In this document: piece after piece, positions 1-17,805 of the stretch
How the letters are laid out: each line of letters begins with the position of its first letter
Numbering within the stretch: the first letter of the stretch is position 1
Assembly (NCBI GenBank): GCA_035623825.1
Contig: DASPSR010000007.1
Location: 128,001 to 192,000, forward strand
Reading direction: 5' to 3'
DNA from: Nitrospirota bacterium
GTDB taxonomy: Bacteria; Nitrospirota; UBA9217
DNA: 64,000 bases
The notes under the pieces: model-generated
The model's database searches: none
The model's input: only the letters and a program-made list of their open reading frames with translations
What the model was told of the DNA's origin: nothing
Made by a program: the position numbers and the translations under genes

Positions 1-482
1 TGACCGCGCGAATAAAAGGTGCGTGATACCTGGGCGCCGCCGAAGGAGCGAGTCACGAGATAACCAGCATAGTCGCGGGCGAAGGGCACGCCTTGTGCTA
101 CGCACTGATCGATTATGTTTGTGCTCACCTGTGCCAAGCGGTATACGTTCGCTTCTCGTGATCGGAAGTCTCCGCCCTTGATTGTGTCGTAGAAGAGACG
201 GTAAACGCTGTCGCCGTCGCCGGGATAGTTCTTGGCTGCGTTGATCCCCCCCTGCGCCGCGATGCTATGGGCGCGGCGCGGGCTGTCCTGTGCGCAGAAG
301 GACTGCACCTCATAGCCGAGCTCACCAAGGGTTGCCGCAGCGGACGCCCCGGCGAGCCCGGTTCCGACCACGATGATGCGGTGCTTCCGCCTGTTCGCTG
401 GATTCACGAGTTTCAGTTCTTGGCGACGCCGTTCCCACTTCTCGGCAAGATGGCCGGAAGGAATTTTACCGTCAAGGATCAT
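1..482 (-). CDS. sdhA: Succinate dehydrogenase/fumarate reductase flavoprotein subunit (5' part; runs off window)
   Basis: Not in the ORF track. Manual translation from ATG at 482 gives [16 protein letters not shown]...[10 protein letters not shown] (FAD GxGxxG) ...[18 protein letters not shown] (covalent-FAD His motif). It lies downstream of sdhC. Confidence 0.95.
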
Positions 483-580
483 TGTATCAAGCTCCGGAAT
501 TTGGTAGGCAGCATAGCACATCGAGGATGGTGCTTTTTATCCTCTGACTCATGGGGTCTTTCACCCTGCTCTATGCGTCA

Positions 581-1249
581 TTACTGCCTCAATATCCCCA
601 GAACCACTGCCACCGGGATTGACATGTACCAGAAAAAAAGAATGACCGACGCTATCGCTCCCGATTTTTCGAATGCGGGGATCGTCCTCTCGTTATTCAA
701 CCCCCATGTCTGAAGGGAGCTCTGCATGCCGTGGAGCAAGTGAAGCCCCAAGGCCGCCAGGGCAATGACGTAAGACCCGCAAACGGCGATATTTTGAAAA
801 CTGCGAACTACCATCATGAGCACGTCCGGTCTTCCCATGGCATCGACATGGCTGTCCGCAGAAATCGCAGGATTCGTGATTTGGAATGTGAACTGCAGGA
901 GATGATAGATAAGGAAAATGACGATAACAATGCCGGTCCAGAACTGATTTCTTCCCGCAAAGGTCGCGTGTAGGTAATGTGTCACTGCGTAGGGCTGCGG
1001 CTTTGCCGCCTTATTGTCGATCTTGATCACGATGCCATAATACAGGTGGACGGTAAAGGCCGCTATCAGAACAATCCTGCCTCCCCAGACAAACAGCGGC
1101 AGGGTATATAAAGCCGCGACATAAGAATTGAGCTTGTGAAAGAAGATAGTTGAGTTACCGGCTATGTGAAAGATGACGAAGACGACAAGTACCTCTCCAG
1201 AGATTGCCATAAGTATCTTTCTGCCGACAGTGGATGTGGGGAAGACCAT
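581..1249 (-). CDS. sdhC: Succinate dehydrogenase cytochrome b558 subunit
   Basis: STVGRKILMAISG start, about five TM helices, conserved His (FHIAGN, YHLLQFT, LHLLHGMQS); adjacent to sdhA. Confidence 0.92.
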   Translation of the reverse strand: MVFPTSTVGRKILMAISGEVLVVFVIFHIAGNSTIFFHKLNSYVAALYTLPLFVWGGRIVLIAAFTVHLYYGIVIKIDNKAAKPQPYAVTHYLHATFAGRNQFWTGIVIVIFLIYHLLQFTFQITNPAISADSHVDAMGRPDVLMMVVRSFQNIAVCGSYVIALAALGLHLLHGMQSSLQTWGLNNERTIPAFEKSGAIASVILFFWYMSIPVAVVLGILRQ

Positions 1250-1378: not shown

Positions 1379-2782
1379 TCATTTTCCCGGTTCTTCCATG
1401 ATTCCGCCCTCGGTCATTTTTCTCGGATCGAGCAGTCGGTCCAGCTCCTCTTTCGACAAATTCGTCATCTCGGCAGCGACGTCTTTTAGCGAACGTCCTT
1501 CGGCATAGGCTTTCTGCGCGATCTGGGCCGCCTTCTCGTAGCCGATGACGGGGTTCAGCACCGTCACGAGTACCGGGTTCTGGCCCACAAGTGCCTCAGT
1601 ACGCTCCCGGTTCACGGTAAAGCTTGCCACGACCTTGTCTGCAAAAAGTCGAGCAGCATTTCCAAGAAGCGTAATCGACTGGAGCAAGTTATGGGCGATT
1701 ACCGGCAGCATGACATTCAACTCGAAGTTGCCGTGCTGGTTGCATACGGTGATGACCACGTCGTTCCCTATTACCTGGGCGCAGGCCATCATCATCGCTT
1801 CGCATATCACGGGGTTCACCTTGCCGGGCATGATGCTCGAACCCGGTTGGAGCGCGGGCAAGGATATCTCCCCCAGTCCAGCGACCGGACCGCTGTTCAT
1901 CCACCGGATGTCGTTGGCGATCTTCATAAAGGACGATGCAGTGGCTTTCAGATGCCCGCTCAGCTCCACGGCCGTATCCATGGTTGCCTGGGCTGCGAAA
2001 TGGTTGTTGGTCTCGGCAAAGGGGTGCCTCGTGCGCTGGACGATCTTGTCCACGACGCGCCTGCCGAATCCCGTCGGTGCATTGATGCCAGTGCCCACGG
2101 CCGTGCCGCCGATGGAGAGCATTGCCAGACGCGGCAGGCATGACTCGAGACGCTCGATTGCCTGCGCGACCTGAAAAGCCCAGCCGCCCATCTCTTGACT
2201 GAGGAGGATTGGCACGGCGTCCATAAGGTGCGTGCGGCCGGTTTTGACGACATCACGAAAATCAGGTTCACGCTTTTTGATCACTTTGTTGAGGTGCTTC
2301 AATGATGGCAGAAGCAGTTCGGTCACGTGAAGGAAGGCGCTTATATGGATAGCGGAAGGGATAACGTCGTTTGACGATTGGCCCATGTTCACGTGGTTGT
2401 TCGGATGGACCTTTGTGCCTGAGCCGCCGAGGAGCTGTGTAGCCCTGCGTGCGAGCACCTCGTTGGCATTCATGTTCGTCGATGTTGCCGAGCCTGTTTG
2501 GAATATATCGAGGGGGAAGTGGTCATCCCATTTCCCCTCGACAATTTCGAGTGCCGCTTGGCGGATAGCCTGCGCCGTTCTGGGTTCGAGCAGGCCGAGC
2601 TCCGCGTTCACCTCGGCAGCGGCAGCCTTGATGAGCCCGAGGGCCCGGATAAAGACATGGGGGAAGCGAATTCCGCTCACAGGGAAATTGTCAATCGCTC
2701 GTTGCGTCTGTGCCCCATAGAGGGCGTCTGCCGGAACCTTGACGTCACCAAGGGAATCTTTTTCGATACGGTAGTCGGTCAT
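1379..2782 (-). CDS. fumC: Fumarate hydratase class II
   Basis: RIEKDSLG...YGAQTQRA start, FQTGSATSTNMN, GRTHLMDA and the GSSIMPGKVNP signature. Confidence 0.97.
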   Translation of the reverse strand: MTDYRIEKDSLGDVKVPADALYGAQTQRAIDNFPVSGIRFPHVFIRALGLIKAAAAEVNAELGLLEPRTAQAIRQAALEIVEGKWDDHFPLDIFQTGSATSTNMNANEVLARRATQLLGGSGTKVHPNNHVNMGQSSNDVIPSAIHISAFLHVTELLLPSLKHLNKVIKKREPDFRDVVKTGRTHLMDAVPILLSQEMGGWAFQVAQAIERLESCLPRLAMLSIGGTAVGTGINAPTGFGRRVVDKIVQRTRHPFAETNNHFAAQATMDTAVELSGHLKATASSFMKIANDIRWMNSGPVAGLGEISLPALQPGSSIMPGKVNPVICEAMMMACAQVIGNDVVITVCNQHGNFELNVMLPVIAHNLLQSITLLGNAARLFADKVVASFTVNRERTEALVGQNPVLVTVLNPVIGYEKAAQIAQKAYAEGRSLKDVAAEMTNLSKEELDRLLDPRKMTEGGIMEEPGK

Positions 2783-3144
2783 AGGGATAAGAATGTGGAC
2801 CCGGAATTTGCTTAATCACAAATCACGATGTTATTTGAAGTCAATAATTAGGATGACAGTGTTGCTTTTTTACACCTTTATTGCGTATTGTGCTAAGAGT
2901 CCAATCCTTGAAGAGACATGGGATGCAAAGAACTTGTTTTGTGATCAGACGCAGCCGTGAATCATGGATGTTATTATAGCGACTTTGAAAGGATTTTGCA
3001 CTGTGTTTTTTAAAAAAGAAAATACCGGAAGCTTTGCCAGTGACGATGCCGAAAACCTCTTCTTTAGAAGAGGGTCGGGATTCAGCAGGCGACAAAAGGG
3101 CCGCCAGTCCTCGATTTTCCGCAGCGAAGTGTAGAAAACTCGAG

Positions 3145-3173
3145 TTGACCGGCACAATAATTAATTCTATAAT
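3145..3173 (+). promoter_or_regulatory. Sigma70-type promoter of malic enzyme gene
   Basis: TTGACC-N17-TATAAT followed by SD AGAGGAG and ATG 3195. Confidence 0.65.
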
Positions 3174-3194
3174 GAGGGCAAGAGGAGATGCGCT

Positions 3195-4613
3195 ATGGAC
3201 TCTGGATGCAACCCCGGACCCAGTCCCAGCTATAGCATAACAATCAGGCTAGAGATCGAGAACCGCATAGGAATGTTTGCCAAGATAGCCACGGCCATCA
3301 GCAGCGCCGGCGGCGACTTGGGTTCTGTAGACATCGTTCGCGTCCAGAAGGGCAAGATCATCCGGGACATCACTGTGAACGCCAGCAATGAGGAGCATGA
3401 GAAGGCGATTGTACGATCGATCAAGACTGTGGTTGGCGTGAAGGTCCTCAGGGTCATGGACCGAACCTTTTCGTCGCATGAGGGGGGAAAGATCGAGATC
3501 AAAAACAAGCTCCCTATGCGCGACCGGAGCGACCTCTCCCAGGTCTACACGCCGGGCGTTGCACGTGTGTGCATGGACATCCATGAGAACAAAGAACACG
3601 CCTACCGTTACACGATTAAAGGTAACTCCGTGGCTATTGTCTCTGATGGAACCGCCGTGCTCGGCCTCGGTGATATCGGGCCTGAGGCTGCGCTGCCGGT
3701 TATGGAAGGCAAGGCCATGATTTTTAAGGAATTCGCAGGCATCGATGCCTTCCCGATTGTACTCGCGACCAAGGACGTCGAGGAGATCGTGAATACGGTT
3801 AGATCTATCGCTCCGGCCTTCGGAGGCATCAACCTCGAGGACATTTCCGCCCCGCGGTGCTTCGAGGTAGAAAAGAGACTCCGAAAAATGCTTGATATTC
3901 CGGTATTCCATGACGATCAGCACGGTACCGCCGTGGTCGTGCTCGCCGCGCTCATCAACGTTGCGCGTCTGCTGAAACGCGATATCAAGAAGTTCAAAGT
4001 CGTTGTTGTCGGTGCAGGCGCAGCAGGCTCGGCCACAGCACGGATCCTCCTTGCCTCAGGCATCAGGGACATCATCGTCTGCGACACAGCCGGGGCCCTG
4101 TACGCCGGCAGAAAACAGGACAGGGATCCTGCTAAGCGAGAGCTCTCGAAGGAGACGAATCCGCGGAAGGTGAGGGGGAGTATTTCTGAGGCAATGAAAG
4201 GAGCGGATGTGTTCATTGGCTTGTCTGCACCGAACGTCATCACGAAAGAAGACATTCAGAGGATGTCCAAATCCCCTGTGGTTTTCGCCCTTGCCAATCC
4301 CGATCCCGAAATCAGACCTGAGGATGCCATGCCGCTGGTGCGCGTCATGGCGACGGGCCGGTCCGATTATCCGAACCAGATCAACAATATGCTCGGGTTC
4401 CCCGGCATCTTCCGGGGCCTCCTTGATGTCCGCGCTAGGGGCGTGAACGAAGCAGTGAAGCTCGCCGCTGCACGCGCCATCGCCCATATCGTAGAGGAGG
4501 ATGAGCTGCACGAGGACTATATTATTCCGAGCATCTTCGACCGCAAGGTGTCCGCATACGTGGCCGCCGCAGTTGCAGAGGTGGCGAAGAAGACGGGCCT
4601 GGCACCGGAATAA
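3195..4613 (+). CDS. NAD(P)-dependent malic enzyme with N-terminal ACT domain
   Basis: N-terminal ACT-like NRIGMFAKIATAI; VYTPGVA, DGTAVLGLGDIG, INLEDI, FHDDQHGTA, GAGAAG, ATGRSDYPNQINN. Confidence 0.95.
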   Translation: MDSGCNPGPSPSYSITIRLEIENRIGMFAKIATAISSAGGDLGSVDIVRVQKGKIIRDITVNASNEEHEKAIVRSIKTVVGVKVLRVMDRTFSSHEGGKIEIKNKLPMRDRSDLSQVYTPGVARVCMDIHENKEHAYRYTIKGNSVAIVSDGTAVLGLGDIGPEAALPVMEGKAMIFKEFAGIDAFPIVLATKDVEEIVNTVRSIAPAFGGINLEDISAPRCFEVEKRLRKMLDIPVFHDDQHGTAVVVLAALINVARLLKRDIKKFKVVVVGAGAAGSATARILLASGIRDIIVCDTAGALYAGRKQDRDPAKRELSKETNPRKVRGSISEAMKGADVFIGLSAPNVITKEDIQRMSKSPVVFALANPDPEIRPEDAMPLVRVMATGRSDYPNQINNMLGFPGIFRGLLDVRARGVNEAVKLAAARAIAHIVEEDELHEDYIIPSIFDRKVSAYVAAAVAEVAKKTGLAPE

Positions 4614-4749
4614 GTAAGTGCGGGAGACGCCGGGCGACCTGAGGGCCTCTCCACTAGTGAAATTAAATCTTTTGCCACCCTTATGTTTCTGCGAATGAAG
4701 ACATCTTCGTCTCCACTTGTCCGAAATTGATCATCAGGAAGGAAAACCT

Positions 4750-6021
4750 ATGGCCGTGAATCATGAGAGATTACACAAAGACGAGAAAGACCTCCGCAGC
4801 CTGGCCATGACCGAGCTGCAGGCCATCTATGCCGATCTCGGGCTCACCCGGGACGAACTCGACCTCTTGGTTGCTCCACGCCGCTCCTTCACGGTGAGCT
4901 TTCCGGTAAAGACATCCGCGGGCAAGACGCAGATGTATACAGGCTACCGCGTACAGTACAATGACGCGCGCGGCCCTGCAAAGGGTGGCATCCGGTTCCA
5001 TCCGGATATGAACCTGGGTCACACGAGCGATCTCGCCTTTCTTATGGCCCTCAAGTGTGCGGTCGTGGATATCCCCTTCGGCGGCGCTAAAGGCGGTGTA
5101 GTCGTAGACCCCTTGGAGCTCAGCCGGGGGGAGCTTCAGCTCGTTACACGCGGCTACATCCGGGCCATCGCGGACTTCATCGGACCGTTCAAAGATATCC
5201 CCGCCCCCGATGTCTATACCGACGAGCACATCATGGCATGGGTCCTTGACGAGTATGAGCGCATCAAACGGGAACACATCCCCGCTGTGGTAACGGGAAA
5301 GCCGCCGGAGCTCGGTGGCATCAGTGTGCGCAGGTATTCAACCGCGCTCGGCGGGGTGCACGTGCTCGAGCAGGCCATGAAGGAGAGGGGAATGGAGGTT
5401 CGCGGGACGCGTGTCGCGGTTCAGGGCTTCGGCAATGTTGGCGGGAATGTCGCGCGCATCCTCCATCATTGGGGCTACACGGTAGTTGCCGTGAGCGACG
5501 TTAATGGTGCCATCCTGAACCCGAGCGGCATCGACATCTCCTCGCTCAGGCGACACAAGAACAAAGAAGGCAGCGTCGTGGGCTTTCCCGACGCAAAAAG
5601 CATCACGAACGCCGAACTTCTCACGACCGACTGCGACATCCTTATTCCCGCTGCGCTATCTAACCAGCTCGATGAGAACAATGCCCGTGACGTAAAGGCA
5701 AAAATCGTTCTCGAACTCGCCAATGCGCCAACAACCGCTGCGGCCGACGACCTCTTATTCGGAAGGGGAGTCCTGGTTATTCCGGACATCCTCGCTAATG
5801 CCGGTGGTGTAGCTGTGAGCTATTTCGAATGGAGCCAGAACCTAAGTAACGATCGCTGGCCGGAACATAAGGTCCTCGAAAAATTAAAACAGACAGTGAT
5901 AGCTGCCTTCAATGATGTCCATGGGCTCTGCAAGGAAATCGGTTGCAGGCTACGCAAGGCCGCGTACCAGCTCGCGGTAAAACGGATCCTGAACGCGGAG
6001 AGACTACGCGGTAATCTCTAG
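4750..6021 (+). CDS. gdhA: Glu/Leu/Phe/Val dehydrogenase (glutamate dehydrogenase)
   Basis: GPAKGGIRFHP, PFGGAKGG, DIPAPDV, QGFGNVG, PDILANAGGVAVSYFEW; start chosen at ATG after GGAAGGA. Confidence 0.9.
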   Translation: MAVNHERLHKDEKDLRSLAMTELQAIYADLGLTRDELDLLVAPRRSFTVSFPVKTSAGKTQMYTGYRVQYNDARGPAKGGIRFHPDMNLGHTSDLAFLMALKCAVVDIPFGGAKGGVVVDPLELSRGELQLVTRGYIRAIADFIGPFKDIPAPDVYTDEHIMAWVLDEYERIKREHIPAVVTGKPPELGGISVRRYSTALGGVHVLEQAMKERGMEVRGTRVAVQGFGNVGGNVARILHHWGYTVVAVSDVNGAILNPSGIDISSLRRHKNKEGSVVGFPDAKSITNAELLTTDCDILIPAALSNQLDENNARDVKAKIVLELANAPTTAAADDLLFGRGVLVIPDILANAGGVAVSYFEWSQNLSNDRWPEHKVLEKLKQTVIAAFNDVHGLCKEIGCRLRKAAYQLAVKRILNAERLRGNL

Positions 6022-7458: not shown

Positions 7459-7625
7459 AAAACGTCATGACTACCGATAAGCGCTGCATCGAAAAAATTC
7501 GCATATTAATCCTCGATAGTCATTGTTCCCCTTTGATTCAATCCGGCCCTCTGGTGCTGAAATCAAAGTAAGTCTTGATGTCATCGGGTTCTTCTGTTAC
7601 ATTCATTAAACAACCGGAGGAAGTC

Positions 7626-10289
7626 ATGAAAACCGGCAGTATTCGTTTCACACTTATCTTGTCGCTGCTGATCTGTTTCGTCCCGGTCACGCTGCCGGCA
7701 GCAGATAAGGACGTTCTTCGTGCATCGCTCGCGAACGGGCTTCGGGTGGTGATCGTGAAAAACGCGCTGGCACCCGTGGTGACCACAGAGGTGAATTACC
7801 TAGTGGGGTCAAATGAGGCGCCGGAAGGGTTTCCCGGTATGGCACACGCGCAAGAGCACATGATGTTTCGGGGAAGTCCGGGAATGTCCGCTGCCCAACT
7901 TTCGAACATCATTGCCCTGATGGGAGGGGACTTTAACGCAGATACTCAGCAGACCGTTACCCAGTATTTTTTCACCGTACCCAAGGATGCGCTGGATGTT
8001 GCACTCAAAGTGGAAGCAGTGCGCATGCAGGGTGTGCTGAACACTCAGGAGCTCTGGGAGCAGGAGCGGGGGGCGATAGAACAGGAGGTGGCCCAGGATC
8101 TCTCGACCCCGGATTACGTTTTTTCAATGCGACTCCTTGCGGAGATGTTTGCAGGTACACCCTATGCACATGATGCTTTGGGCACGCGACCTTCGTTTCA
8201 GAAGACGACGGGTGCTATGCTCAAGCAGTTTTTTGACTCGTGGTATGCACCGAACAACGCCATCCTCGTCATCGTTGGTGATGTGGACCAGCAGAAGACC
8301 CTGGAAAAGGTTAAGGATCTTTTCGGAGCGATTCCGAAGCGGACATTGCCAGACCGTCCGGCGGTAAAGCTTCAGCCGGTGAAGCCAGCGACGATCGCAT
8401 TTGATACGGATTTATCGTACGGCCTAGCGGTTGCGGCCTATCGCCTGCCCGGATTCGACAGCCCTGACTACGCCACAGGCCAAATTCTGGCTGACGTTCT
8501 GGACAGCCGGAGAGGAAATCTCTACACGCTGGTTGTCGAAGGGAAATCGCTCTTCACAGGCTTCGATGGGGGTACGCTGCCGAAGGCAGCATACGGATAC
8601 GCCTTTGCTGCATTTCCGCCGGGAGGGGACGGCAAAGGCCTGGTTACTACAATAAAGAATATCATTGCCGAGTACGTGAAAAATGGGGTCCCTGCTGATC
8701 TCGTCGAATCGGCAAAACGTCATGAGATCGCTGATGCGGAATTTCAGAAGAATTCAGTTGCCGGACTCGCTGCCGCCTGGTCCCAGGCCCTCGCAGTCGA
8801 AGGCCGAGGCTCACCTGACGACGATATTGAAGCAATCAGAAGAGTAACGGTCGAAGACGTGAACCGCGTGGCCAGAGAATTTCTAGTGAACGATTCGGCG
8901 ATCACTGCAGTTCTTACACCGCGGCCATCGGGAAATCCCGTCTCCTCCAAGGGGTTCGGCGGCAAAGAGTCCTTTGCCCCTCAAGAGACCAGTCCTGTTG
9001 AACTTCCCGCATGGGCGCAGAAAGCTGCAATACCGCCCGGTGTGCCGGTGTCCCTGGTTAATCCCGACGTTTCCACACTGCCCAACGGGATTCGCCTGAT
9101 TGTTCAGCCTGAGAATGTAAGTCCCACGGTTAGCGTTATTGGCCAGGTGAAGAACAACGACGATCTTGAAGAGCCTGCGGGACAAGAAGGGGTCTCCGAC
9201 GTGCTGGGAGGCCTCTTCTCCTATGGGACAACATCTCTCGACAGGCTCGCGTTCCAGAAGGCTCAGGACGATATTGGTGCAGATGTTTCAGCCGGTTTAT
9301 CGTTCTCGCTCAGGGTTCTCTCAGACCATTTCGATCGGGGCATGGAACTCCTTGCGGACAACATACTGCATCCGGCTCTGCCTGAAGCAGCCTTCGTCGT
9401 TGTGCAGCGGGAAACGGTCAGTTCCCTGCAGGGCCAACTCAAGAGCCCTGCCTATCTTTCGAGGCGGGCGCTTCGTGAGGCCCTCTATCCCAAGAACGAC
9501 CCAGTGCTTCGCGATCCCTCACCAGAGACCGTGGCGGCGCTTTCACTGCACGACGTTAAATCCTATTATGCAAAGGCTTTCCGCCCCGATATGATGACCA
9601 TCGTGATAATCGGCAATGTGACTCCGGAACAAGCGCGTACAACAGTGGGAAAATACTTCGGAACCTGGACTGCGGCGGGGCCGAAACCGGCGACGGATCT
9701 TCCAGCCGTGCCGCACAACAAGCCCTCGGCGTCTTCGGTCCCCGATACGAGTAGGGTTCAGAATGAGGTGCTGCTTGCCGAGACAATTGACGTCACGCGT
9801 TCTCACCCGGATTACTACAAACTTCAGCTCGGCAACCACGTTCTGTCCGGTGCATTCTACGCTACGCGTCTCTATCGCGACCTTCGTGAGAAGGCCGGAC
9901 TTGTCTATTCGGTAGAGTCTTATCTCGAGACTGGGAAGAACCGATCCCTTTTCAGCGTTTCATACGCATGCGACCCGCCGAATGTGTCGAAGGCGCGGGC
10001 AATGGTCGAGAGCAATCTGCGCGAAATGCAGACTTCACCCGTGACGGAGGAGGAATTGCAGCGGGCCAAAACGCTTCTCGTCAGGCAGATTCCCCTCACT
10101 GAAGCGAGCACAGATAGCATCGCCCGGAGGCTGCTCTCCCTCTCGCTGGAGGATCTGCCTCTTAACGAACCTGTCCGTGCTGCACAGCATTACCTTGAGA
10201 CGACGGCCGAACAAGTAAGGGATTCGTTTGCCAAATGGATACGGCCCGCCGACTTCGTTCAGGTAACAATCGGTCCTACCCCGGAATAG
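7626..10289 (+). CDS. M16 (pitrilysin/PqqL-like) zinc metallopeptidase, exported
   Basis: Signal peptide, LANGLRVVI, inverted zincin HAQEH, duplicated second half (LPNGIRLIV, RLYRDLREKAGLVY). Confidence 0.93.
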   Translation: MKTGSIRFTLILSLLICFVPVTLPAADKDVLRASLANGLRVVIVKNALAPVVTTEVNYLVGSNEAPEGFPGMAHAQEHMMFRGSPGMSAAQLSNIIALMGGDFNADTQQTVTQYFFTVPKDALDVALKVEAVRMQGVLNTQELWEQERGAIEQEVAQDLSTPDYVFSMRLLAEMFAGTPYAHDALGTRPSFQKTTGAMLKQFFDSWYAPNNAILVIVGDVDQQKTLEKVKDLFGAIPKRTLPDRPAVKLQPVKPATIAFDTDLSYGLAVAAYRLPGFDSPDYATGQILADVLDSRRGNLYTLVVEGKSLFTGFDGGTLPKAAYGYAFAAFPPGGDGKGLVTTIKNIIAEYVKNGVPADLVESAKRHEIADAEFQKNSVAGLAAAWSQALAVEGRGSPDDDIEAIRRVTVEDVNRVAREFLVNDSAITAVLTPRPSGNPVSSKGFGGKESFAPQETSPVELPAWAQKAAIPPGVPVSLVNPDVSTLPNGIRLIVQPENVSPTVSVIGQVKNNDDLEEPAGQEGVSDVLGGLFSYGTTSLDRLAFQKAQDDIGADVSAGLSFSLRVLSDHFDRGMELLADNILHPALPEAAFVVVQRETVSSLQGQLKSPAYLSRRALREALYPKNDPVLRDPSPETVAALSLHDVKSYYAKAFRPDMMTIVIIGNVTPEQARTTVGKYFGTWTAAGPKPATDLPAVPHNKPSASSVPDTSRVQNEVLLAETIDVTRSHPDYYKLQLGNHVLSGAFYATRLYRDLREKAGLVYSVESYLETGKNRSLFSVSYACDPPNVSKARAMVESNLREMQTSPVTEEELQRAKTLLVRQIPLTEASTDSIARRLLSLSLEDLPLNEPVRAAQHYLETTAEQVRDSFAKWIRPADFVQVTIGPTPE

Positions 10290-10443: not shown

Positions 10444-10971
10444 CTATTTGATAGCCCCACACGCTACCCTTCCACCTCCGCCTCCCAGCGGAGCCGGCAT
10501 ATCGGAATAATTGTCGCCTCCGGCATGGATCATGAGAGACCGTCCCTTCAAATCGGCTGTCTTGAGCCGTGGTGCCAGAACGGGCGTTGTGGCTTTCCCG
10601 TCAGCGCCGACGTATAAAGCCGGCAAATCGCCGAGATGCCCCTGAGCAAAGGGCCCTTCGTGCTTACTTGTTCCAGCAGGATCGTAGTGCCCTCCCGCCG
10701 CAAGGCCTGACACCTGCTTGCCATCTTTCATAGCCGGGCCGCAATCAGGATTCTGATGCACATGAAAACCATGAATACCCGGCGTCAACTCACTGAGATC
10801 CGGAACCAGCAGCAGCCCGTACTGCGTGTCCGAGATGCTCACCGTGCCGATGCTCTTTCCTGTGCCCTGGTCTGTTATGAGGTTCATTTGAACGACAATT
10901 CCTCCGGCGAACGCAGTCCCTGCGATCACTACTGCAAACACAATCAGCAGAACATATAGACCTTTTCTCAT
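10444..10971 (-). CDS. sodC: Periplasmic Cu/Zn superoxide dismutase
   Basis: Signal peptide; [42 protein letters not shown]. Confidence 0.96.
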
Positions 10972-11044: not shown

Positions 11045-11072
11045 TTGACAATCAGGTTCAAGGTGGTAAAAT
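11045..11072 (+). promoter_or_regulatory. Sigma70 promoter of aconitase operon
   Basis: TTGACA-N16-TAAAAT with extended -10 TG, about 140 nt upstream of the aconitase ATG. Confidence 0.7.
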
Positions 11073-11211: not shown

Positions 11212-13161
11212 ATGAAAGTGAACAAGAACCTAACTCATCAAATTTTAGAGGCCCACCTGGTGGAAGGGAAACTGGTTGCCGGCAGGGAGATTGGCATCAG
11301 GATCGACCAAACCCTGCTTCAGGATGCCACGGGAACGCTCGCCATGCTGGAGTTCGAGGCATTGGGACTCAATGCGGTCAAGGTAGGGCTTGCAGCGCAA
11401 TACGTGGACCATAATCTCCTCCAGACGGATAACAAGAATGCCGATGATCACAAGTTCCTCCAGACCGCATCCGCACGATATGGTGTTTTTTTCAGCAAGC
11501 CGGGCAACGGCGTATCGCATCAGGTGCACATGGAGCGTTTCGGCGGTCCGGGCAAAATACTTCTAGGCGCGGATAGCCACACCCCGGGTGCTGCGGGTGT
11601 TTCCATGCTGGGCATCGGGGCGGGGGGATTGGATGTCGCCTTGGCTATGGCCGGATATCCCTATTATCTTCCTTGCCCCATAGTGCTCGGAGTCAAACTT
11701 ACGGGCAAACTCCCTGAATGGGTGAGTGCCAAGGACGTGATACTGGAGATGCTGCGGCGTTACGACGTCAAAGGCTGCGTAGGCAAGATCATCGAGTATT
11801 ACGGCCCGGGGGTCAAGACTCTGTCCGCCACAGACCGCGAGACGATCGGCAACATGGGCACGGAGACGGGGGCAACAACCTCCCTCTTCCCGTCTGATGA
11901 ACGGACGCGGGAGTACCTGTTCGCCCAAGGGCGAGGTGATGCGTGGACTCCGCTTTCTGCCGATGATGGGGCGAAGTATGACGAATATATGGAGATCGAC
12001 CTCTCGAGGCTTGAACCGCTTATTGCCAAGCCTTCGTCGCCGGGTAACGTGGTGCCCGTACGCGAAGTGGCTGGTATCAAGGTGGACCAGGCGATCGTCG
12101 GCAGCAGCGTCAACTCATCCTTCCGAGACCTTATGATTGCGGCCAGAATGCTCGAGGGCCGGCGTATCAATCCCGATACCTCGTTCCATGTAAACCCAGG
12201 GAGCCGCCAGGTGCTCGAGAACGTGTATCGGGCAGGAGGTCTCCTGGCCTTTCTGGCCGCAGGCGCACGCGTCCATGAACCCGGATGTCAGGGGTGCATC
12301 GGCATGGGACAGGCGCCGGGCACCGGTGAGGTGAGCCTCCGCACGTTCCCTAGAAATTTCCCGGGCAGATCGGGGACCAAGGAAGACAGGGTCTATCTCT
12401 GCTCTCCCGAGACGGCGACGGCAGCGGCACTGAAGGGAGTGATCACGGACCCGAGAGATCTTGCACAAGACATGGGATACCCCCGGATCGAAGAGCCTGA
12501 ACAGTACCTTATCGACGAGAAGTCCATCATATTTCCGTCAGAGGCACTGAGGAAGACTGCGATCATCCGCGGGCCGAACATCAAGGCTCTGCCAGAACTG
12601 AAACCCCTTCCCGAAACGCTCGAGGCTGAGGTCGTGCTCAAGGCAGGAGACAACATTTCCACGGACACTATCATGCCGGCAGGGAACCGTGTACTTCCCT
12701 TCCGTTCCAACATTGAAGCGATCAGCGAATTCGTATATTCGCCGATAGATCCCGATTTTGCAAAAGAGTGCAAGTCACGGGGTGCCGTGGTCGTCATTGC
12801 CGGCGAGAACTATGGTCAGGGGTCGAGCCGAGAACATGCAGCGCTCGCACCACGGTATCTCGGCGTTCGAGCAAAAATCGTGAAAAGCTTTGCCCGTATT
12901 CACAAATCGAATCTCTGTAATTTCGGCATCCTACCGCTCACTTTCAGAGACCGTTCGGACTATGACAGGTTGAACAAAGGCATGATGGCAGTGTTTTCGG
13001 ATATCCGAAGGCGGATTGAACGGGGTGACCGGGAAATCCCGGTAGAGATTAATGGACAGACCATAATCACGGTTCTGGACGTGTCCGAGCGTCAGCGGAA
13101 ATATCTGCTGGCGGGAGGGACGCTGAATTTCGTTAAGCAGGAGCTTTTGGCTGGAGTGTGA
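11212..13161 (+). CDS. Aconitate hydratase (short ~650-aa type)
   Basis: QDATGT, YVDHN, DSHT, GCQGCIGMG, RNFPGRSG, ISTDTIMPAG, NYGQGSSREHAA. Confidence 0.93.
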   Translation: MKVNKNLTHQILEAHLVEGKLVAGREIGIRIDQTLLQDATGTLAMLEFEALGLNAVKVGLAAQYVDHNLLQTDNKNADDHKFLQTASARYGVFFSKPGNGVSHQVHMERFGGPGKILLGADSHTPGAAGVSMLGIGAGGLDVALAMAGYPYYLPCPIVLGVKLTGKLPEWVSAKDVILEMLRRYDVKGCVGKIIEYYGPGVKTLSATDRETIGNMGTETGATTSLFPSDERTREYLFAQGRGDAWTPLSADDGAKYDEYMEIDLSRLEPLIAKPSSPGNVVPVREVAGIKVDQAIVGSSVNSSFRDLMIAARMLEGRRINPDTSFHVNPGSRQVLENVYRAGGLLAFLAAGARVHEPGCQGCIGMGQAPGTGEVSLRTFPRNFPGRSGTKEDRVYLCSPETATAAALKGVITDPRDLAQDMGYPRIEEPEQYLIDEKSIIFPSEALRKTAIIRGPNIKALPELKPLPETLEAEVVLKAGDNISTDTIMPAGNRVLPFRSNIEAISEFVYSPIDPDFAKECKSRGAVVVIAGENYGQGSSREHAALAPRYLGVRAKIVKSFARIHKSNLCNFGILPLTFRDRSDYDRLNKGMMAVFSDIRRRIERGDREIPVEINGQTIITVLDVSERQRKYLLAGGTLNFVKQELLAGV

Positions 13162-13238
13162 CAGTGTCAAGATTTTTTTGAAGGCAGCGCTCAGCATGGC
13201 CGCGATAGATGAAAATAGGACCCAGAGGGGAGGCAAGG

Positions 13239-14420
13239 ATGTCTGATGCCGTGAAAGTTAAAAACATCGGGTTGCGTGGGGTCACGGTGGCGGACACAAA
13301 GATATGCCATATAGACGGCGAGCATGGTATCCTCATCTATCGCGGATACCGAATCGAAGAGCTCGCCAGAAACTCGACATTCGAGGAGACTGCTTATTTA
13401 CTTCTCCACGATTCGCTGCCGACCGAGCAGCAGCTCGAAGAATTTAAAACCCGGCTCGTTGAAGCACGGGAGGTCCCGGGATATATCTTCGACAGCCTCA
13501 AAAAGCTGCCCGTACGGTCACACCCTATGGACGTTCTCCAGGGATCCATACCGCTTTTGGCCACGGCTGATCCAGATCTGTCGGTCGAAACGAGAGAGGC
13601 GAACATTGTAAAGGCCGTAAGGCTTATTGCTCGCATCCCCCCGGTTGTCGCAGGCTGGCAGCGAATACGGAACGGCAAGGATCCGGTGCCGGCTGACGAT
13701 ACGCTGTCCCATGCAGGAAACTTTTTGTGGCAGCTCACGGGCACGCAGCCTGATGCCGAGATAGCCCACGATCTCGATACCGTGCTGGTGCTCCACGCCG
13801 ACCATGCATTCAACCCGTCCACCTTCGCCTGCCGTGAGGTCGTGTCCACGCGTGCGCACATGTATGCAGGCGTCGCTGCAGGGGTAGGCGCTTTATCAGG
13901 AAGCCTCCACGGTGGCGCCAACGCCCAGGTGATGAAGATGCTCTTGGAACTCCGCAACGAAAAGGACATCGCGGCGTGGGTAAAAAGACAACTTGATAGC
14001 GGCCAGAAGATAATGGGCATGGGGCATGCAGTCTATAAGACGCTGGATCCCCGAGCCGTGTTTCTGAAGGACATGTGTTTCAGACTTGGCGAGAAGCTGC
14101 GTGAGCCGCACTGGTGCAGGCTTTCGACCCAGATTGAGGAGAGCGCAGTGGCGGAATTCGAAAAACGAGGCAAGACAACAATCAAGCCCAATGTCGATTT
14201 TTATAGCGCACCGGTCTACCACATGATGGGTATTCCACGCGATCTCATGACGCCGCTCTTCGCAGTGTCGAGGATCGCGGGCTGGACCGCACATATCATC
14301 GAGGAAAAGTTCGGCGACGCACAAGATAAACCCGCGCTTTACAGGCCATCATCAGAGTATATCGGCAACTACTGCGGCAAGACAGGTTGCGTTTATGAGC
14401 CGATTGAAGAGAGGAAGTAA
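13239..14420 (+). CDS. gltA: Citrate synthase (short type; 2-methylcitrate synthase not excluded)
   Basis: GLRGVTVADTKIC, LIYRGY, LHADHAFNPSTF, LHGGAN, MGMGHAVYKTLDPRA, PNVDFYS. Confidence 0.9.
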   Translation: MSDAVKVKNIGLRGVTVADTKICHIDGEHGILIYRGYRIEELARNSTFEETAYLLLHDSLPTEQQLEEFKTRLVEAREVPGYIFDSLKKLPVRSHPMDVLQGSIPLLATADPDLSVETREANIVKAVRLIARIPPVVAGWQRIRNGKDPVPADDTLSHAGNFLWQLTGTQPDAEIAHDLDTVLVLHADHAFNPSTFACREVVSTRAHMYAGVAAGVGALSGSLHGGANAQVMKMLLELRNEKDIAAWVKRQLDSGQKIMGMGHAVYKTLDPRAVFLKDMCFRLGEKLREPHWCRLSTQIEESAVAEFEKRGKTTIKPNVDFYSAPVYHMMGIPRDLMTPLFAVSRIAGWTAHIIEEKFGDAQDKPALYRPSSEYIGNYCGKTGCVYEPIEERK

Positions 14421-14556
14421 GGCGCTGAAAGGTATGGTGCCGCAGAGTCAGAGGGCAAAAAAAGAAAACCTGGCTCAACATTCAAGATTAAATGTTCGAT
14501 ACGGCATGATCAGCGCTGCTACTTAAAAAAATCAATCATGGGAAAATGCAAGGGGG

Positions 14557-15969
14557 GTGACAGAAATGAAAGTTCGATCCATGAAAACATACCGAGACAG
14601 AAGCATTAAGATACAATCGATCAACCCCTATAACGAGCAGGTGGTACAGGAATTCGATCTACTGTCGCGTGCCGAACTTGACCGACAGGTTGAGAGGTCC
14701 CGCGAGGCCTTTAACGCTTGGAGGGGCGTTCCGGTCGTTGATCGGGCCAGGCGCGTGAAGACGCTTGGCGACCATTTGCGGGCTGAGAAGAGGAAATATG
14801 CGGAACTCATAACAAGGGAGATGGGGAAGCCCATCAGGGAATCGTTAGCCGAGGTCGAGAAATGTGCATGGCTCTGCGATTATTACGCGGAAAATGCCGA
14901 GCGTTTCCTAAAGCCCGAGGAGATCAAGACGGAGTCGAAGAAGAGCTACGTCGCGTTCGAGCCACTGGGCATCGTGCTCGCGATCATGCCATGGAACTTC
15001 CCTTACTGGCAAGCGTTCCGCTTCGGCATCCCCGCGATAAGCGCGGGGAACGTCGTTTTGCTTAAGCATGCGTCCAATGTGCCTGCGACTGCGCTGTCTA
15101 TCGAGGGCGCATTCCGGGCTGCTGGCTTCCCGGAGAACGTGCTCAAGACCGTGCTCATCGATGCGAATGCCGCACTTAAGCTTATCGACGATGATAAGGT
15201 AGATGCCGTTTCCCTGACGGGAAGCAACAAGGCCGGCGAGAAGGTCGGCGAAAGTGCTGGGAGGAATATCAAGAAGTTCGTGCTAGAACTGGGCGGTTCC
15301 GACCCCTACATAGTCCTTGACGATGCAGACGTAGAAAAGGCGGCTAGGACCGCCGTGAACGCTAGGATGATCAACACCGGTCAGAGTTGCATCGCGGCAA
15401 AGCGCTTCATTGTCATGGAGAAGGTTGCCGAGGAGTTCAAGAAGGTCCTCGTTTCGCGGTTCAAGGAGCTCACGGTCGGCGACCCCATGGACGATACAAC
15501 CGATCTCGGCCCCGTTGCCAAGAAGGAGATCCTTGATTCCCTGAAGGAGCAACTCAGGGATGCGAGGGCAAAAGGCGCCAGCGTCCTGCAGCCCGATCAT
15601 CCCTTTAAGAAGGGCTTTTACTTCGCACCTGCCATTGTCTTCAATCCCAAGGAGAACATGAAGGTCCTCAAAGAGGAGGTGTTCGGACCCATCGCACCGG
15701 TTATCGTCGTCAAGGACGAGGACGAAGCGGTTCGGGTCGCGAACAACACCGACTACGGCCTCGGCGCCTCTGTCTGGAGCCGGAACACGGACAGAGCAGA
15801 GCGGATAGCTTCACGGATCGAGGCTGGTTTCATTGCCATCAACGACATGGTGAAATCCGATCCCCGCTTGCCCTTTGGAGGCGTGAAGAAGTCGGGTGTC
15901 GGCAGGGAGCTATCACATTATGGACTGAGGGAATTCGTGAACATCAAGACCGTGGTTGTAAGGGAATAA
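14557..15969 (+). CDS. NAD(P)-dependent succinate-semialdehyde dehydrogenase (Sad/GabD1-like ALDH)
   Basis: SINP, IMPWNFPYWQ, LKHASNVP, LTGS, LELGGSDP, NTGQSCIAAKRF, EEVFGP, PFGGVKKSG; true start may be 14566 or 14581. Confidence 0.88.
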   Translation: MTEMKVRSMKTYRDRSIKIQSINPYNEQVVQEFDLLSRAELDRQVERSREAFNAWRGVPVVDRARRVKTLGDHLRAEKRKYAELITREMGKPIRESLAEVEKCAWLCDYYAENAERFLKPEEIKTESKKSYVAFEPLGIVLAIMPWNFPYWQAFRFGIPAISAGNVVLLKHASNVPATALSIEGAFRAAGFPENVLKTVLIDANAALKLIDDDKVDAVSLTGSNKAGEKVGESAGRNIKKFVLELGGSDPYIVLDDADVEKAARTAVNARMINTGQSCIAAKRFIVMEKVAEEFKKVLVSRFKELTVGDPMDDTTDLGPVAKKEILDSLKEQLRDARAKGASVLQPDHPFKKGFYFAPAIVFNPKENMKVLKEEVFGPIAPVIVVKDEDEAVRVANNTDYGLGASVWSRNTDRAERIASRIEAGFIAINDMVKSDPRLPFGGVKKSGVGRELSHYGLREFVNIKTVVVRE

Positions 15970-16173
15970 ATCATAAAGACGATCATAACCGTGGAGGCAC
16001 GGAAGAAAGTTCAAGATCCAAATGCCAAAGATAGTTTAGCGGTCGAAAATCAAACAGGTTGCCGAAAGGCTTTCACATTAATATGATATTTGAGCAATGA
16101 TGCTCGCCTTTCTTTTATCGGTGTGCCTCTGTGGTTAAATTTTTGTTTGAGACGTTCGCGAGGATCGTACCCT

Positions 16174-17805
16174 ATGAAGGCATCTGATCTATTCGTAAAG
16201 CAACTCGAAGAAGAGAGCGTCGAGTATATATTTGGCCTTCCCGGGGAGGAGAACCTCGACTTTCTCGAATCGCTCCGCACATCCTCGATTAAGGTCGTCA
16301 TTACGCGGCACGAACAGGCCGCAGCGTTCATGGCCGCCACTTATGGCAGATTGACAGGAAAGGCCGGTGTCTGCTTTTCGACGCTGGGGCCGGGGGCGAC
16401 AAACCTCATGACAGGCGTGGCTCATGCGCAGCTCATCGGCGCACCGCTCATCGCCATCACCGGCCAAAAAGCTCTTCGCGATAACTGGCAGGCAGCCTTT
16501 CAGCTCATCGATGTTGCGAGCATCATGCACCCCGTCACGAAGTATTCCCTCTCAATTGCCGATCCAAGCACCATCCCTACAGTCACGCGGAAAGCGTTCC
16601 GGATCGCACAGTCGGAACGTCCGGGCGCCGTACATATCGAGTTGCCTGAGGATGTCGCCCAGAGCGAGGCGCGCGCGGCCGTACAGAAACGAGGCTATGA
16701 ACGCCGGCCATCTCCTGACCCCAAGGCCGTGGACCGCGCAGCATCCCTGATCAACGCTGCGCAGAACCCCCTCCTCATTCTCTCCTCCGGCGCCAACCGG
16801 AAGTTGATCTCGCGCCGAATAAGCGAGTTCGTGGAGAAAACGGGGATCCACGCGGTTCATACACAAATGGGCAAAGGCGTGCTGAGCGATGCGTCTGAAT
16901 ATAGTCTCTTTGCCACCGGAATCCACAAAAAGGATTTCGTGAACTGTGGCATCGATAAAGCCGACCTCATCGTCACGGTGGGATACAACATCGTCGAGTA
17001 TCCGCCCTACCTCTGGAACGAGCGCTTGGACAAGGAAGTGATCCATATCGGATTCACCCCGGCCGCACTGGACAGGTATTACAACCCTGCTGTCGAAGTT
17101 GTTGGGGATGTGTCAGCGACGCTCAGATCGCTATGTGAGAGGGTTGGGCGAAAGAGCGGAAAAACGTTCCGAGCCATCCGCGCCTATCTGGGGAAAAAGC
17201 TCGCCATTGATCCCACCCGTCAGTTCCCACCCACTCCCCAAGAGGTGGTCTGGCATGTGCGGAATGTGCTGTCCGAGGACGACATCGTTACGATGGACAA
17301 CGGGATCTATAAACTCTGGTTCTCACGGCTCTATAAGACCTATAACCCCAATACTTTTTTACTCGATAATGCCCTTGCGACGATGGGCGCAGGTCTTCCA
17401 TCGGCCACGGCAGCGAAGATGCTCAATCCCGACAAGAATGTCCTCGCTGTAGTGGGAGACGGAGGATTCATGATGAACTCTCAGGAACTGGAGACGGCGC
17501 TCCGATACAACATTCCCGTTGTCGTGCTAATCCTTAACGATAACGCCTTTGGGTTCATCAAGTGGGAGCAGCAGGCCAAGGGCTTCAAAAATTTCAGCTT
17601 GGACTTCGGAAACCCCGACTTTTCACGTTTCGCGGAGAGCTTCGGTGCGGCGGGTTTCAAAGTCCGGAAAGGGGACGACCTCTCGAATGTGTTACGCGAG
17701 GCCTTTGCACTCAAGAGGCCGGCGGTGATCGAATGTCCCATTGATTATTCCGTCAACTATGCAACTTTCTCAAAAGAGCTCTCGAACTTTGTGTGCGAGG
17801 TGTGA
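16174..17805 (+). CDS. ThDP-dependent enzyme of the acetolactate-synthase-like family; probable 2-oxoglutarate decarboxylase
   Basis: IFGLPGEENL, RHEQAAAFMA, STLGPGATN, GDGGFMMNSQELETA (ThDP motif), CPIDYS; no ilvN or ilvC nearby; directly after the SSADH gene. Confidence 0.8.
   Translation: MKASDLFVKQLEEESVEYIFGLPGEENLDFLESLRTSSIKVVITRHEQAAAFMAATYGRLTGKAGVCFSTLGPGATNLMTGVAHAQLIGAPLIAITGQKALRDNWQAAFQLIDVASIMHPVTKYSLSIADPSTIPTVTRKAFRIAQSERPGAVHIELPEDVAQSEARAAVQKRGYERRPSPDPKAVDRAASLINAAQNPLLILSSGANRKLISRRISEFVEKTGIHAVHTQMGKGVLSDASEYSLFATGIHKKDFVNCGIDKADLIVTVGYNIVEYPPYLWNERLDKEVIHIGFTPAALDRYYNPAVEVVGDVSATLRSLCERVGRKSGKTFRAIRAYLGKKLAIDPTRQFPPTPQEVVWHVRNVLSEDDIVTMDNGIYKLWFSRLYKTYNPNTFLLDNALATMGAGLPSATAAKMLNPDKNVLAVVGDGGFMMNSQELETALRYNIPVVVLILNDNAFGFIKWEQQAKGFKNFSLDFGNPDFSRFAESFGAAGFKVRKGDDLSNVLREAFALKRPAVIECPIDYSVNYATFSKELSNFVCEV

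Follow-up and report, generated by a model that had tools for sequence, protein, structure and literature searches.

How would an anaerobe whose genome yields no match to the E1 subunit of 2-oxoglutarate dehydrogenase (OGDH) get from 2-oxoglutarate to succinate? The question is raised by a 64,000-nucleotide stretch of DNA (the window) from a DsrAB-bearing (sulfite-reductase) peat anaerobe, which named homologues place probably in Nitrospirota. At positions 11212-17805, its ORF list holds genes for aconitase, citrate synthase, an aldehyde dehydrogenase (ALDH) and a ThDP enzyme resembling acetolactate synthase, all on the + strand. We lean towards reading the last two as an OgdA/SsaD-like bypass that would convert 2-oxoglutarate to succinate.

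The four-gene block and its surroundings

Profile searches with Pfam and NCBIfam confirmed the co-directional order of the four genes that a preliminary description of this DNA had reported (Table 1). With alternative starts, the ORFs span 11212-13161, 13209/13239-14420, 14557/14566-15969 and 16090/16174-17805. ATG 16174 is most likely the start of the ThDP gene rather than TTG 16090, because homologues begin MKASDLF. The citrate synthase, which scores slightly below the TIGR01800 cut-off (413.4 versus 421.3), is the genome's sole match at E<=1e-80. Two RNA libraries contain short contigs that correspond to parts of each of the four genes, a weak support. We infer co-transcription with reserve: the citrate synthase and ALDH genes are ~145 bp apart, the ALDH and ThDP genes 204 bp, and weak promoter-like matches lie upstream of the ThDP gene.

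Table 1 Features of the window with coordinates, strand and supporting match
Feature	Position	Strand	Evidence
Succinate dehydrogenase/fumarate reductase flavoprotein gene, N-terminal part (context)	1..521	-	NF005749 1130.6 bits, cut-off 866
SdhC, b558-family cytochrome b subunit (context)	581..1249	-	TIGR02046 150.9 bits, cut-off 96
Class II fumarate hydratase / aspartate ammonia-lyase family enzyme (context)	1379..2782	-	Ambiguous
Malic-enzyme-like protein (context)	3195..4613	+	NF009501 367.8 bits, below cut-off
Glutamate dehydrogenase-like protein (context)	4717..6021	+	NF040817 459.3 bits, below cut-off 750
Sigma-70-like promoter match, 5' of aconitase gene	11045..11072	+	TTGACA-16-TAAAAT, 11/12, TG extension; consensus match only
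Aconitate hydratase, 649 aa, PRK07229/TIGR01342 type	11212..13161	+	NF005558 950.9 bits, cut-off 612
Citrate synthase, 393 aa from ATG 13239	13239..14420	+	PF00285 424 bits
NADP-type succinic-semialdehyde dehydrogenase candidate, 467 aa from ATG 14566	14566..15969	+	PF00171 475.7 bits
ThDP-dependent 2-oxoacid decarboxylase candidate, NF006187/PRK08322 family, clade A, 543 aa	16174..17805	+	NF006187 785.9 bits

Genes for further TCA-cycle functions stand at the start of the window. The flavoprotein gene runs beyond it (in full, G000:C13:126569-128521), and a 269-aa Fe-S subunit ORF further upstream (L103) reads as sdhB from its cysteine motifs. The fumarase/aspartase-family product falls short of TIGR00979 (581.6, cut-off 664.75) and exceeds NF008909 (541.6, cut-off 510). 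Besides the block, 24 more window ORFs, from 25544 to 63792, were given to Pfam. The acetolactate decarboxylase family had zero matches among the scanned ORFs, and none of ilvN, ilvC or sucABCD was found in the window, in agreement with the preliminary description.

An additional paralogue outside the AlsS and IlvB clades

The ThDP enzyme has all three domains of its fold family (PF02776, PF00205 and PF02775). It matches NF006187 far above the cut-off of 509 and over profile positions 2-547 of 548, with the same score in a search of the genome, and passes no other NCBIfam cut-off. Both AlsS models (NF006378/TIGR02418) remained out of reach (467.1 versus 510; 435.8 versus 551.1), as did IlvB (TIGR00118, 393.3 versus 538.35). 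A tree of 92 rows, from which the characterised OgdA/KGD sequences (A2770, sll1981 and MAE_06010) were left out, places the enzyme within a starred clade of 27 rows, clade A, and outside the AlsS (100*) and IlvB (99*) clades; the preliminary description had named grouping with either as part of the evidence against its reading. Clades A and B join AlsS in an unresolved polytomy, and function is therefore not transferred by monophyly.

The biosynthetic role has another occupant. A separate ilvBN, suggested earlier as a point to look up in the genome, exists in an ilvD-ilvB-ilvN-x-ilvC cluster on contig C3, and the C3 protein groups with IlvB in the tree. These comparisons support the window gene as an additional acetolactate synthase-like paralogue rather than the biosynthetic enzyme. 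Four motifs that the preliminary description had linked to the cyanobacterial enzyme (GLPGEENL, YGRLTGKAGVC, STLGPGATNLMTGVA and CPIDY) do occur in the translation; they recur whole or partly among the nine aligned NF006187 sequences and are therefore no marker of a 2-oxoglutarate enzyme.

Linkage with the ALDH gene recurs across genomes

We sampled 64 genomes of the family, the window's genome included, and found the ThDP gene in 53. The ALDH gene lies within 3 kb of it in 50 of these, citrate synthase is there too in 43, and all four genes including aconitase are present in 40. Because the linkage recurs in this way, the arrangement is not chance. Family aconitase copies that adjoin citrate synthase are 77-86% identical.

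Pairing with an ALDH extends beyond the family. In 49 of the 76 ThDP-family loci examined, an ALDH-like match lies within 4 kb (26-55% identity to the ALDH of the window), and on haloarchaeal plasmids an annotated 'acetolactate synthase' adjoins a 'succinate-semialdehyde dehydrogenase'. Two natural ThDP-ALDH fusions, P0124 and P0183, appear among the cluster representatives. In P0124 the ALDH part shares only 27% identity with the window's ALDH, so the fusions show decarboxylase-ALDH coupling generally, not succinic semialdehyde specifically. The window's gene order for this pair also occurs in Methanosarcinales (Ca. Methanoperedens, Methanolobus and others), where an ALDH gene, its product 50-55% identical to ours, directly precedes the ThDP gene. 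There, unlike in the window, the ThDP enzyme belongs to clade B (43% identical) and citrate synthase/aconitase are near in some loci only (for example, L020). These are probably the 'methanogen' genes of Zhang and Bryant 2011, going by the quotation in PMC12214013; we found no characterised pair in the literature searched.

The ALDH retains the functional residues of a cyanobacterial SSADH

Top PDB matches of the ALDH were 3VZ1 and 4IT9 (448 bits), with 3VZ3 (444 bits) in the same top group and Sad/YneI at 387 bits. According to PMC7510979, 3VZ3 is a2771, the succinic-semialdehyde dehydrogenase (SSADH) of Synechococcus PCC 7002, in which W135, R139 and S419 lie beside the succinic semialdehyde carboxylate and K154 and S157 are NADP determinants. 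Reading the HMMER alignment to 4IT9/3VZ1, we found all eight a2771 functional residues named there retained: N144, W148, R152, K167, S170, E241, C275 and S431 of the ALDH correspond to a2771 N131, W135, R139, K154, S157, E228, C262 and S419. The catalytic Cys, Glu and Asn (C275, E241 and N144) are among them. The best NCBIfam model, the NADP-dependent SSADH equivalog NF006915, has a cut-off of 730, which the ALDH did not reach (525.7 bits).

A conserved catalytic core and a pocket predicted to differ

To place the ThDP enzyme's residues, we mapped sites of the Microcystis KGD (MaKGD) via a proxy, P0134, a colinear Methanoperedens-type clade B protein that matched 16 of the 17 named sites and is 42-43% identical to the window enzyme. 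By this indirect mapping, the Microcystis enzyme appears to fall with the subclade other than the window enzyme's. The core is common to both: E47, D429, D456 and M404 align with MaKGD E50, D435, D462 and M410 (the catalytic Glu, the GDG...N(D)N diphosphate motif and the Met that keeps the cofactor in its V conformation). By the same mapping, seven of the 17 named sites differ (H251, N376, I378, Y379, F459, F461 and E465, versus Q254, V382, A384, H385, Y465, L467 and K471 in Microcystis). From the docking and mutagenesis pocket set (Q254, V382, A384, H385, K386, L467 and K471), again read via P0134, the window enzyme keeps K386 alone, as K380; the set is not established as defining, because it was taken from a docking model. 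In that model Lys386 hydrogen-bonds 2-oxoglutarate, as PMC10418658 describes it. This column holds Lys in 27/27 clade A, 41/44 clade B and 1/6 IlvB rows and in 0/10 AlsS rows, which have Tyr, Gln or His. At the column of the window enzyme's Ala402, Gln is present in 10/10 AlsS rows. Two pocket positions separate clade A from clade B: at one, Asn fills 26/27 clade A rows and Val 41/44 clade B rows; at the other, the figures are 24/27 for Tyr and 39/44 for His. Clade A emerges as a second PRK08322 subclade, still uncharacterised, whose substrate pocket is predicted to differ.

The clade A pocket, together with an identity of just ~43% between the clades, lends weight to another reading: that the pair serves as decarboxylase and ALDH for some other 2-oxoacid, or that the ThDP enzyme is a carboligase, with clade A functionally distinct and its tie to citrate synthase and aconitase reflecting another pathway. 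Further NF006187 members are paired with unrelated ALDHs (26-31% identity to that of the window), and substrates probably vary within the family. Against this, the ALDH keeps the equivalents of W135, R139 and S419, its best solved relatives are the PCC 7002 SSADH group, and in Methanosarcinales an ALDH of the same orthogroup accompanies the other clade. A 2-oxoglutarate substrate would also suit the neighbouring citrate synthase and aconitase genes and the failure to find OGDH and SucCD. We consider a different substrate or reaction unlikely, and infer 2-oxoglutarate as the substrate, together with the direction and weight of flux.

TCA-cycle genes and a possible second route

The genome is 89.65% complete, so gene absences are provisional. 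OGDH E1 (sucA), another point raised for checking, had zero matches in the genome, and 0/64 family genomes exceeded the cut-off. The genome search also did not find SucCD (the best Ligase_CoA match, on C66, reached 24 bits), glutamate decarboxylase (Pyridoxal_deC) or a convincing succinyl-CoA:acetate CoA-transferase. Few family genomes carry SucCD. Present are NADP-isocitrate dehydrogenase, SdhCAB, a fumarase-like lyase gene and an MDH/LDH-family match.

In the bypass that we favour, the ThDP enzyme would decarboxylate 2-oxoglutarate non-oxidatively to succinic semialdehyde, which the ALDH, encoded just upstream, would oxidize to succinate with NADP+. Aconitase and citrate synthase from the block, NADP-isocitrate dehydrogenase from elsewhere, SdhCAB, the fumarase-like lyase and the MDH/LDH-family enzyme would supply the remaining steps. 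The net result would be an oxidative TCA cycle without OGDH and without succinyl-CoA.

The same genome suggests a way in which this bypass could be auxiliary, for example an oxygen-tolerant or detoxifying side route, with the main flux passing through a 2-oxoglutarate:ferredoxin oxidoreductase and a CoA-transferase or ADP-forming synthetase. Among several OFORs, a two-subunit enzyme on C53 exceeds the cut-offs for both alpha (TIGR03710, 653.3 versus 482.75 bits) and beta (TIGR02177, 362.1 versus 261.9) and could be such an oxidoreductase; C66 encodes an ADP-forming (ACD-type) acyl-CoA synthetase and a CoA-transferase. Judged by profile scores, these may form a ferredoxin-dependent second route, and 7/64 family genomes hold the ThDP/ALDH pair alongside a SucCD-like pair. 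The C53 enzyme, however, scores far below cut-offs of 2-oxoglutarate-specific models (NF007206, 170.8 versus 579), and the C66 transferase is nearest the butyryl-CoA:acetate type (274.2 versus 674.8) and only weakly like succinate CoA-transferase (129.4 versus 658.7). A merely auxiliary role seems to us quite improbable, and the earlier wording that the shunt stands 'in place of OGDH' was nevertheless too strong given the C53 enzyme.

That the gene is a catabolic acetolactate synthase, as annotated, beside a functionally unrelated ALDH is very hard to credit: the NCBIfam name of NF006187 ('acetolactate synthase large subunit') and the best-matching solved structures (acetolactate synthases, 13bb_A at 387.4 bits and AlsS entries at 330-365 bits) favour it, but the sub-threshold AlsS scores, the position outside the AlsS clade, Ala402 for the invariant Gln, the unmatched acetolactate decarboxylase family in the scanned ORFs and the retained ALDH neighbour all oppose it.

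Comparison with known systems

Sulfate reducers of the Desulfobacter type run a modified TCA cycle with 2-oxoglutarate:ferredoxin oxidoreductase and a succinyl-CoA-handling enzyme. Our host resembles them as an anaerobic, DsrAB-bearing organism without a detected OGDH and with multiple OFORs. It differs in that neither SucCD nor a convincing succinyl-CoA:acetate CoA-transferase was found and in that a decarboxylase/SSADH pair is joined to citrate synthase and aconitase.

With the cyanobacterial OgdA/SsaD systems (A2770/A2771, sll1981 and MAE_06010), the window shares a ThDP gene annotated as acetolactate synthase beside one for SSADH, in a genome where OGDH is missing, an ALDH nearest the solved a2771 group, and an enzyme core with Lys at the KGD K386 position. 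Unlike theirs, its order is ALDH then ThDP gene, joined to citrate synthase and aconitase, and its host is no phototroph. PMC5160925 describes the ogdA-ssaD operon of PCC 7002 (SynPCC7002_A2770/A2771) with sucCD present, whereas SucCD was not found in our genome at its stated completeness. AlsS shares the three-domain fold and is the nearest solved type by sequence; it is set apart by clade, scores and the Lys380 and Ala402 columns. Closure of the TCA cycle by the shunt survives in part from the preliminary description: the extra paralogue, the SSADH-like ALDH, the undetected OGDH E1 and SucCD and the conserved block agree with it, and the changed KGD residues and the different subclade, both from indirect mapping, weaken it.

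Implications

The bypass reading is probable, yet not new in kind. Some methanogens and anaerobic bacteria carry closely related genes according to Zhang and Bryant 2011, as quoted in PMC12214013, and the bypass is cited for Thiomicrorhabdus in PMC9751133. The idea of a cyanobacterial bypass in anaerobes thus dates in print from 2011, and what is gained here is scope and detail, not principle. More tentatively, and as a conjecture we think less likely than not, clade A may be an uncharacterised decarboxylase subfamily whose acn-gltA-ssaD-decarboxylase module gives sulfate/sulfite-reducing, Nitrospirota-like peat anaerobes a ferredoxin-independent, irreversible and succinyl-CoA-free TCA cycle. 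Such a cyanobacterial-style complete cycle would serve to oxidize organic acids during dissimilatory sulfur metabolism, and might stand in for 2-oxoglutarate:ferredoxin oxidoreductase as a route that tolerates oxygen. Enzymologists have a clear target in clade A of PRK08322. Should the pair function as proposed, a TCA-cycle step lies concealed behind automated 'acetolactate synthase' annotations across a family of DsrAB-bearing anaerobes, and models of their metabolism would depict a broken cycle in error.

A four-gene block conserved in the family

Aconitase, citrate synthase, an aldehyde dehydrogenase (ALDH) and a three-domain ThDP enzyme are encoded as a block in the source genome, G000 (3.24 Mb, 67 contigs, 89.65% complete), whose contig C13 holds the window at positions 128001-192000. 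Intergenic gaps of about 145 bp and 204 bp lie within the block. The aconitase gene is preceded by a strong promoter-like site, the ThDP gene by weak ones only. All four motifs cited for the ThDP enzyme in the preliminary description were found in the window translation. Homologues open with MKASDLF, so the ThDP gene probably starts 28 codons downstream of the initially assigned TTG 16090. Just 5' of the block are genes for a superoxide dismutase and an M16 peptidase, and the peptidase gene also sits upstream of the block in another sampled genome, G161.

Features of the window and of other G000 contigs
Feature	Location	Strand	Profile match
Fumarase/aspartase-family lyase, malic-enzyme-like protein, GDH-like protein	window 1379-6021		
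M16 peptidase	window 7575-10289	+	
Periplasmic-type Cu/Zn superoxide dismutase	window 10444-10971	-	NF007628, 211.3 bits (cut-off 165)
Aconitase	window 11212-13161	+	NF005558, 950.9 bits
Citrate synthase	window 13239-14420	+	PF00285, 424 bits
ALDH	window 14566-15969	+	PF00171, 475.7 bits
Three-domain ThDP enzyme	window 16174-17805	+	NF006187, 785.9 bits
Oxalate oxidoreductase set	G000:C14:72286-77022		alpha 580.6 bits (cut-off 500)
Second aconitase paralogue	G000:C22:79351-81276		
NADP-IDH	G000:C22:97164-98354		
dsrA match	G000:C38:30450-31601		569.6 bits

We surveyed the phylum with an even sample of 301 genomes, G000 included. ThDP matches (E ≤ 1e-100) occurred in 99/301 genomes and ALDH matches (E ≤ 1e-90) in 62/301, concentrated in the window's family (52/63 and 53/63 other genomes, respectively). 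Combining in family-wide citrate synthase and aconitase searches across the 64 family genomes (G000 included), we located the ThDP gene in 53/64, with ALDH within 3 kb of it in 50/53, citrate synthase also in 43 and aconitase also in 40. Of the three genomes lacking an adjacent ALDH, G158 and G115 have the ThDP match at a contig end; G209 has a ThDP match split into two parts and yielded no match for the ALDH. The order aconitase, citrate synthase, ALDH, ThDP enzyme was seen directly in three genomes. The arrangement reported in the preliminary description is confirmed, and conservation of all four genes as a block makes it a stronger observation than was known then. The wider sdh, fumC-like, malic-enzyme and GDH neighbourhood was not found beside the block in the two-contig genome G095, so we do not count that setting as conserved.

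Two same-genus genomes (G147, G176) encode ThDP and ALDH proteins 72-75% identical to the window's, and the same block's aconitase at 85-86%. In another family, f3, 4/12 genomes (G030, G039, G079, G085) carry an ALDH orthologue with 67-72% identity to the window ALDH, and 0/12 gave a ThDP match at E ≤ 1e-100, so that the SSADH-like gene in those four has no such ThDP partner. In G119 the ALDH and ThDP genes read as a single open frame of 1078 aa, but only because a scaffold gap of 100 N separates them at locus L113 (G119:C42), 1630-1729; this is not a true fusion.

Seven peat-metagenome-labelled DNA runs hold at least 53% of the window's sampled words, and one may be its source. We compared the block with three runs, two from RNA libraries and one from DNA. 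In the two RNA libraries, both from peat, short contigs cover parts of each of the four block genes and differ from them at 0-6 positions. No contig spans two genes, and these matches speak to neither co-transcription nor expression level. They give a weak hint that the block is expressed, carry-over of DNA being possible. Metagenome proteins reach up to 91-97% identity with the window ThDP enzyme.

The ThDP enzyme and acetolactate synthases

The only profile that the ThDP enzyme matched above cut-off (509 bits) was NF006187, the PRK08322 family. It fell short of the AlsS models (467.1 against a cut-off of 510; 435.8 against 551.1) and of the IlvB model (393.3 against 538.35). Contig C3 of G000 carries a canonical ilvD-ilvB-ilvN-x-ilvC...leuA-leuCD-leuB cluster.

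We built a 92-row tree (IQ-TREE quick, LG+C20) from the window protein, 5 close homologues, 51 NF006187-labelled cluster representatives, 5 Methanosarcinales-type, 14 named-locus, 10 AlsS-labelled and 5 IlvB-like proteins, and the IlvB of G000; it includes 66 of the 150 listed representatives, with partial, fused and lower-ranked ones omitted. The window protein lies outside both the AlsS clade (support 100) and the IlvB clade (99), so the grouping with either that the preliminary description named as evidence against its reading was not found in this tree. It falls within clade A (27 rows, 99), an uncharacterised subclade. The weakly supported clade B (44 rows, 85) holds Methanosarcinales, Thiomicrorhabdus and Bacillaceae types, and these two clades branch from an unresolved polytomy together with AlsS and a few single rows. 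Profiles and phylogeny together predict that the window enzyme is neither a biosynthetic nor a catabolic acetolactate synthase.

Comparison with a characterised 2-oxoglutarate decarboxylase

The Microcystis 2-oxoglutarate decarboxylase (KGD) was compared through a proxy protein and the 17 numbered KGD residues given in PMC10418658, rather than through the KGD sequence itself. The proxy, P0134, belongs to clade B and is of Ca. Methanoperedens type; it matched 16/17 of these residues at a constant offset of -3, with other representatives far behind, and is 42-43% identical to the window ThDP enzyme. Under this mapping, the window enzyme keeps E47, K380, A402, M404, G428-D429-G430-G431, D456 and Y525. 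Changed residues are H251 (KGD Q254), N376 (V382), I378 (A384), Y379 (H385), F459 (Y465), F461 (L467) and E465 (K471).

Residues at four columns of the tree alignment
Column	Clade A	Clade B	AlsS	IlvB
KGD-K386	Lys 27/27	Lys 41/44	Lys 0/10	Lys 1/6
Window A402	Ala 25/27	Ala 33/44	Gln 10/10	Ala 1/6
Window N376	Asn 26/27	Val 41/44		
Window Y379	Tyr 24/27	His 39/44		

Acetolactate synthases differ from the PRK08322 family as a whole at the first two columns, and the last two tell clade A from clade B. The window enzyme thus has family-level marks in common with the KGD-like clade, yet represents a distinct subfamily. No cyanobacterium was among the best 80 matches of a contig scan with P0134 (Methanosarcinales, Bacillaceae, Thiomicrospira and others) or among the protein homologues of P0134 listed down to 55% identity, and no cyanobacterial OgdA/KGD was among the matches listed for tblastn searches of plasmids. 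The protein atlas offered generic ALS clusters only.

The ALDH resembles a cyanobacterial SSADH

The best solved relatives of the window ALDH are 3VZ1, 3VZ2, 3VZ3, 4IT9, 4ITA and 4ITB (444-448 bits), with Sad/YneI behind them at 387 bits. 3VZ3 is a2771, the succinic semialdehyde dehydrogenase (SSADH) of Synechococcus PCC 7002, for which PMC7510979 names catalytic residues (C262, E228, N131), residues beside the succinic semialdehyde carboxylate (R139, W135, S419) and NADP determinants (K154, S157). Counted along the alignment, 8/8 of the residues named there are kept in the window ALDH, as C275, E241, N144, R152, W148, S431, K167 and S170. Among NCBIfam models it scores best with NF006915, the NADP-SSADH equivalog, but its 525.7 bits fall below the cut-off of 730.

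Metabolic setting of the source genome

We found no OGDH E1 in G000, and 0/64 family genomes had a match over cut-off. Nor did G000 yield SucCD, the sole match being 24 bits in an ACD-type synthetase, or any match to the glutamate decarboxylase family. SucCD-like pairs occur in 7/64 family genomes, plus one partial match, and the ThDP/ALDH pair is present in 7/7 of these. NADP-IDH, an MDH/LDH-family match, DsrA, SdhC and SdhA are present in G000; the window takes in sdhC and the beginning of sdhA. An ORF for a 269-aa Fe-S subunit is an SdhB candidate by its cysteine motifs. The dsrA match has one TAA inside, which may be either the natural stop codon of the gene or an interruption. The NADP-IDH gene shares its contig with another aconitase paralogue, which has 55% identity to that of the window; both aconitases occur in most family genomes.

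Five 2-oxoacid:ferredoxin oxidoreductase (OFOR) loci were identified in G000: Por, oxalate oxidoreductase, Vor-like, Ior and a two-subunit enzyme on contig C53. A CoA-transferase encoded on C66 most resembles butyryl-CoA:acetate transferase. Given the two-subunit OFOR and this CoA-transferase, a ferredoxin-dependent route onward from 2-oxoglutarate is possible. The oxalate oxidoreductase set is complete, with beta and delta-like parts, and adjoins an oxalate/formate antiporter-like MFS gene.

Relatives outside the phylum

Methanosarcinales carry the same ALDH orthogroup, 50-55% identical to the window's, directly before a clade B enzyme. An ALDH-like match lies within 4 kb at 49/76 fetched loci, at 26-55% identity to the window ALDH, and haloarchaeal plasmid annotations place 'acetolactate synthase' adjoining 'succinate-semialdehyde dehydrogenase'. 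Natural ThDP-ALDH fusions were seen in two cluster representatives, P0124 (1016 aa) and P0183 (1019 aa). In P0124 the ALDH half shares only 27% identity with the window ALDH and so belongs to a different ALDH subfamily.

Another representative, P0129 (677 aa), joins a PRK08322-family ThDP enzyme to a cyclic-nucleotide-binding domain at its C-terminus (PF00027, 55.3 bits); this fusion suggests that in some lineage the enzyme is controlled directly by cNMP. Locus L074 of Thiomicrorhabdus sp. ISEC-1 (BQXR01000007.1) contains a full-length PRK08322-family gene at 4001-5626, 52% identical to P0134, with no ALDH within 4 kb. PMC9751133 describes the MAG of this strain as having SSADH and missing 2-oxoglutarate decarboxylase.

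Functional reading of the block

The bypass concept is already known. Zhang and Bryant 2011, as quoted in PMC12214013, noted that methanogens and anaerobic bacteria have closely related genes; the bypass is cited for Thiomicrorhabdus in PMC9751133, and was sought in Sphaerochaeta in PMC3372971. Literature searches on 2-oxoglutarate decarboxylase in Nitrospirae and in Thermodesulfovibrio yielded nothing lineage-specific and, for Thermodesulfovibrio, no paper. A bypass from 2-oxoglutarate through succinic semialdehyde to succinate, with the ThDP enzyme and the ALDH as its candidate enzymes, is the best available functional reading of the block, and one we hold with moderate confidence on the basis of gene context and the ALDH, not of demonstrated ThDP-enzyme orthology.
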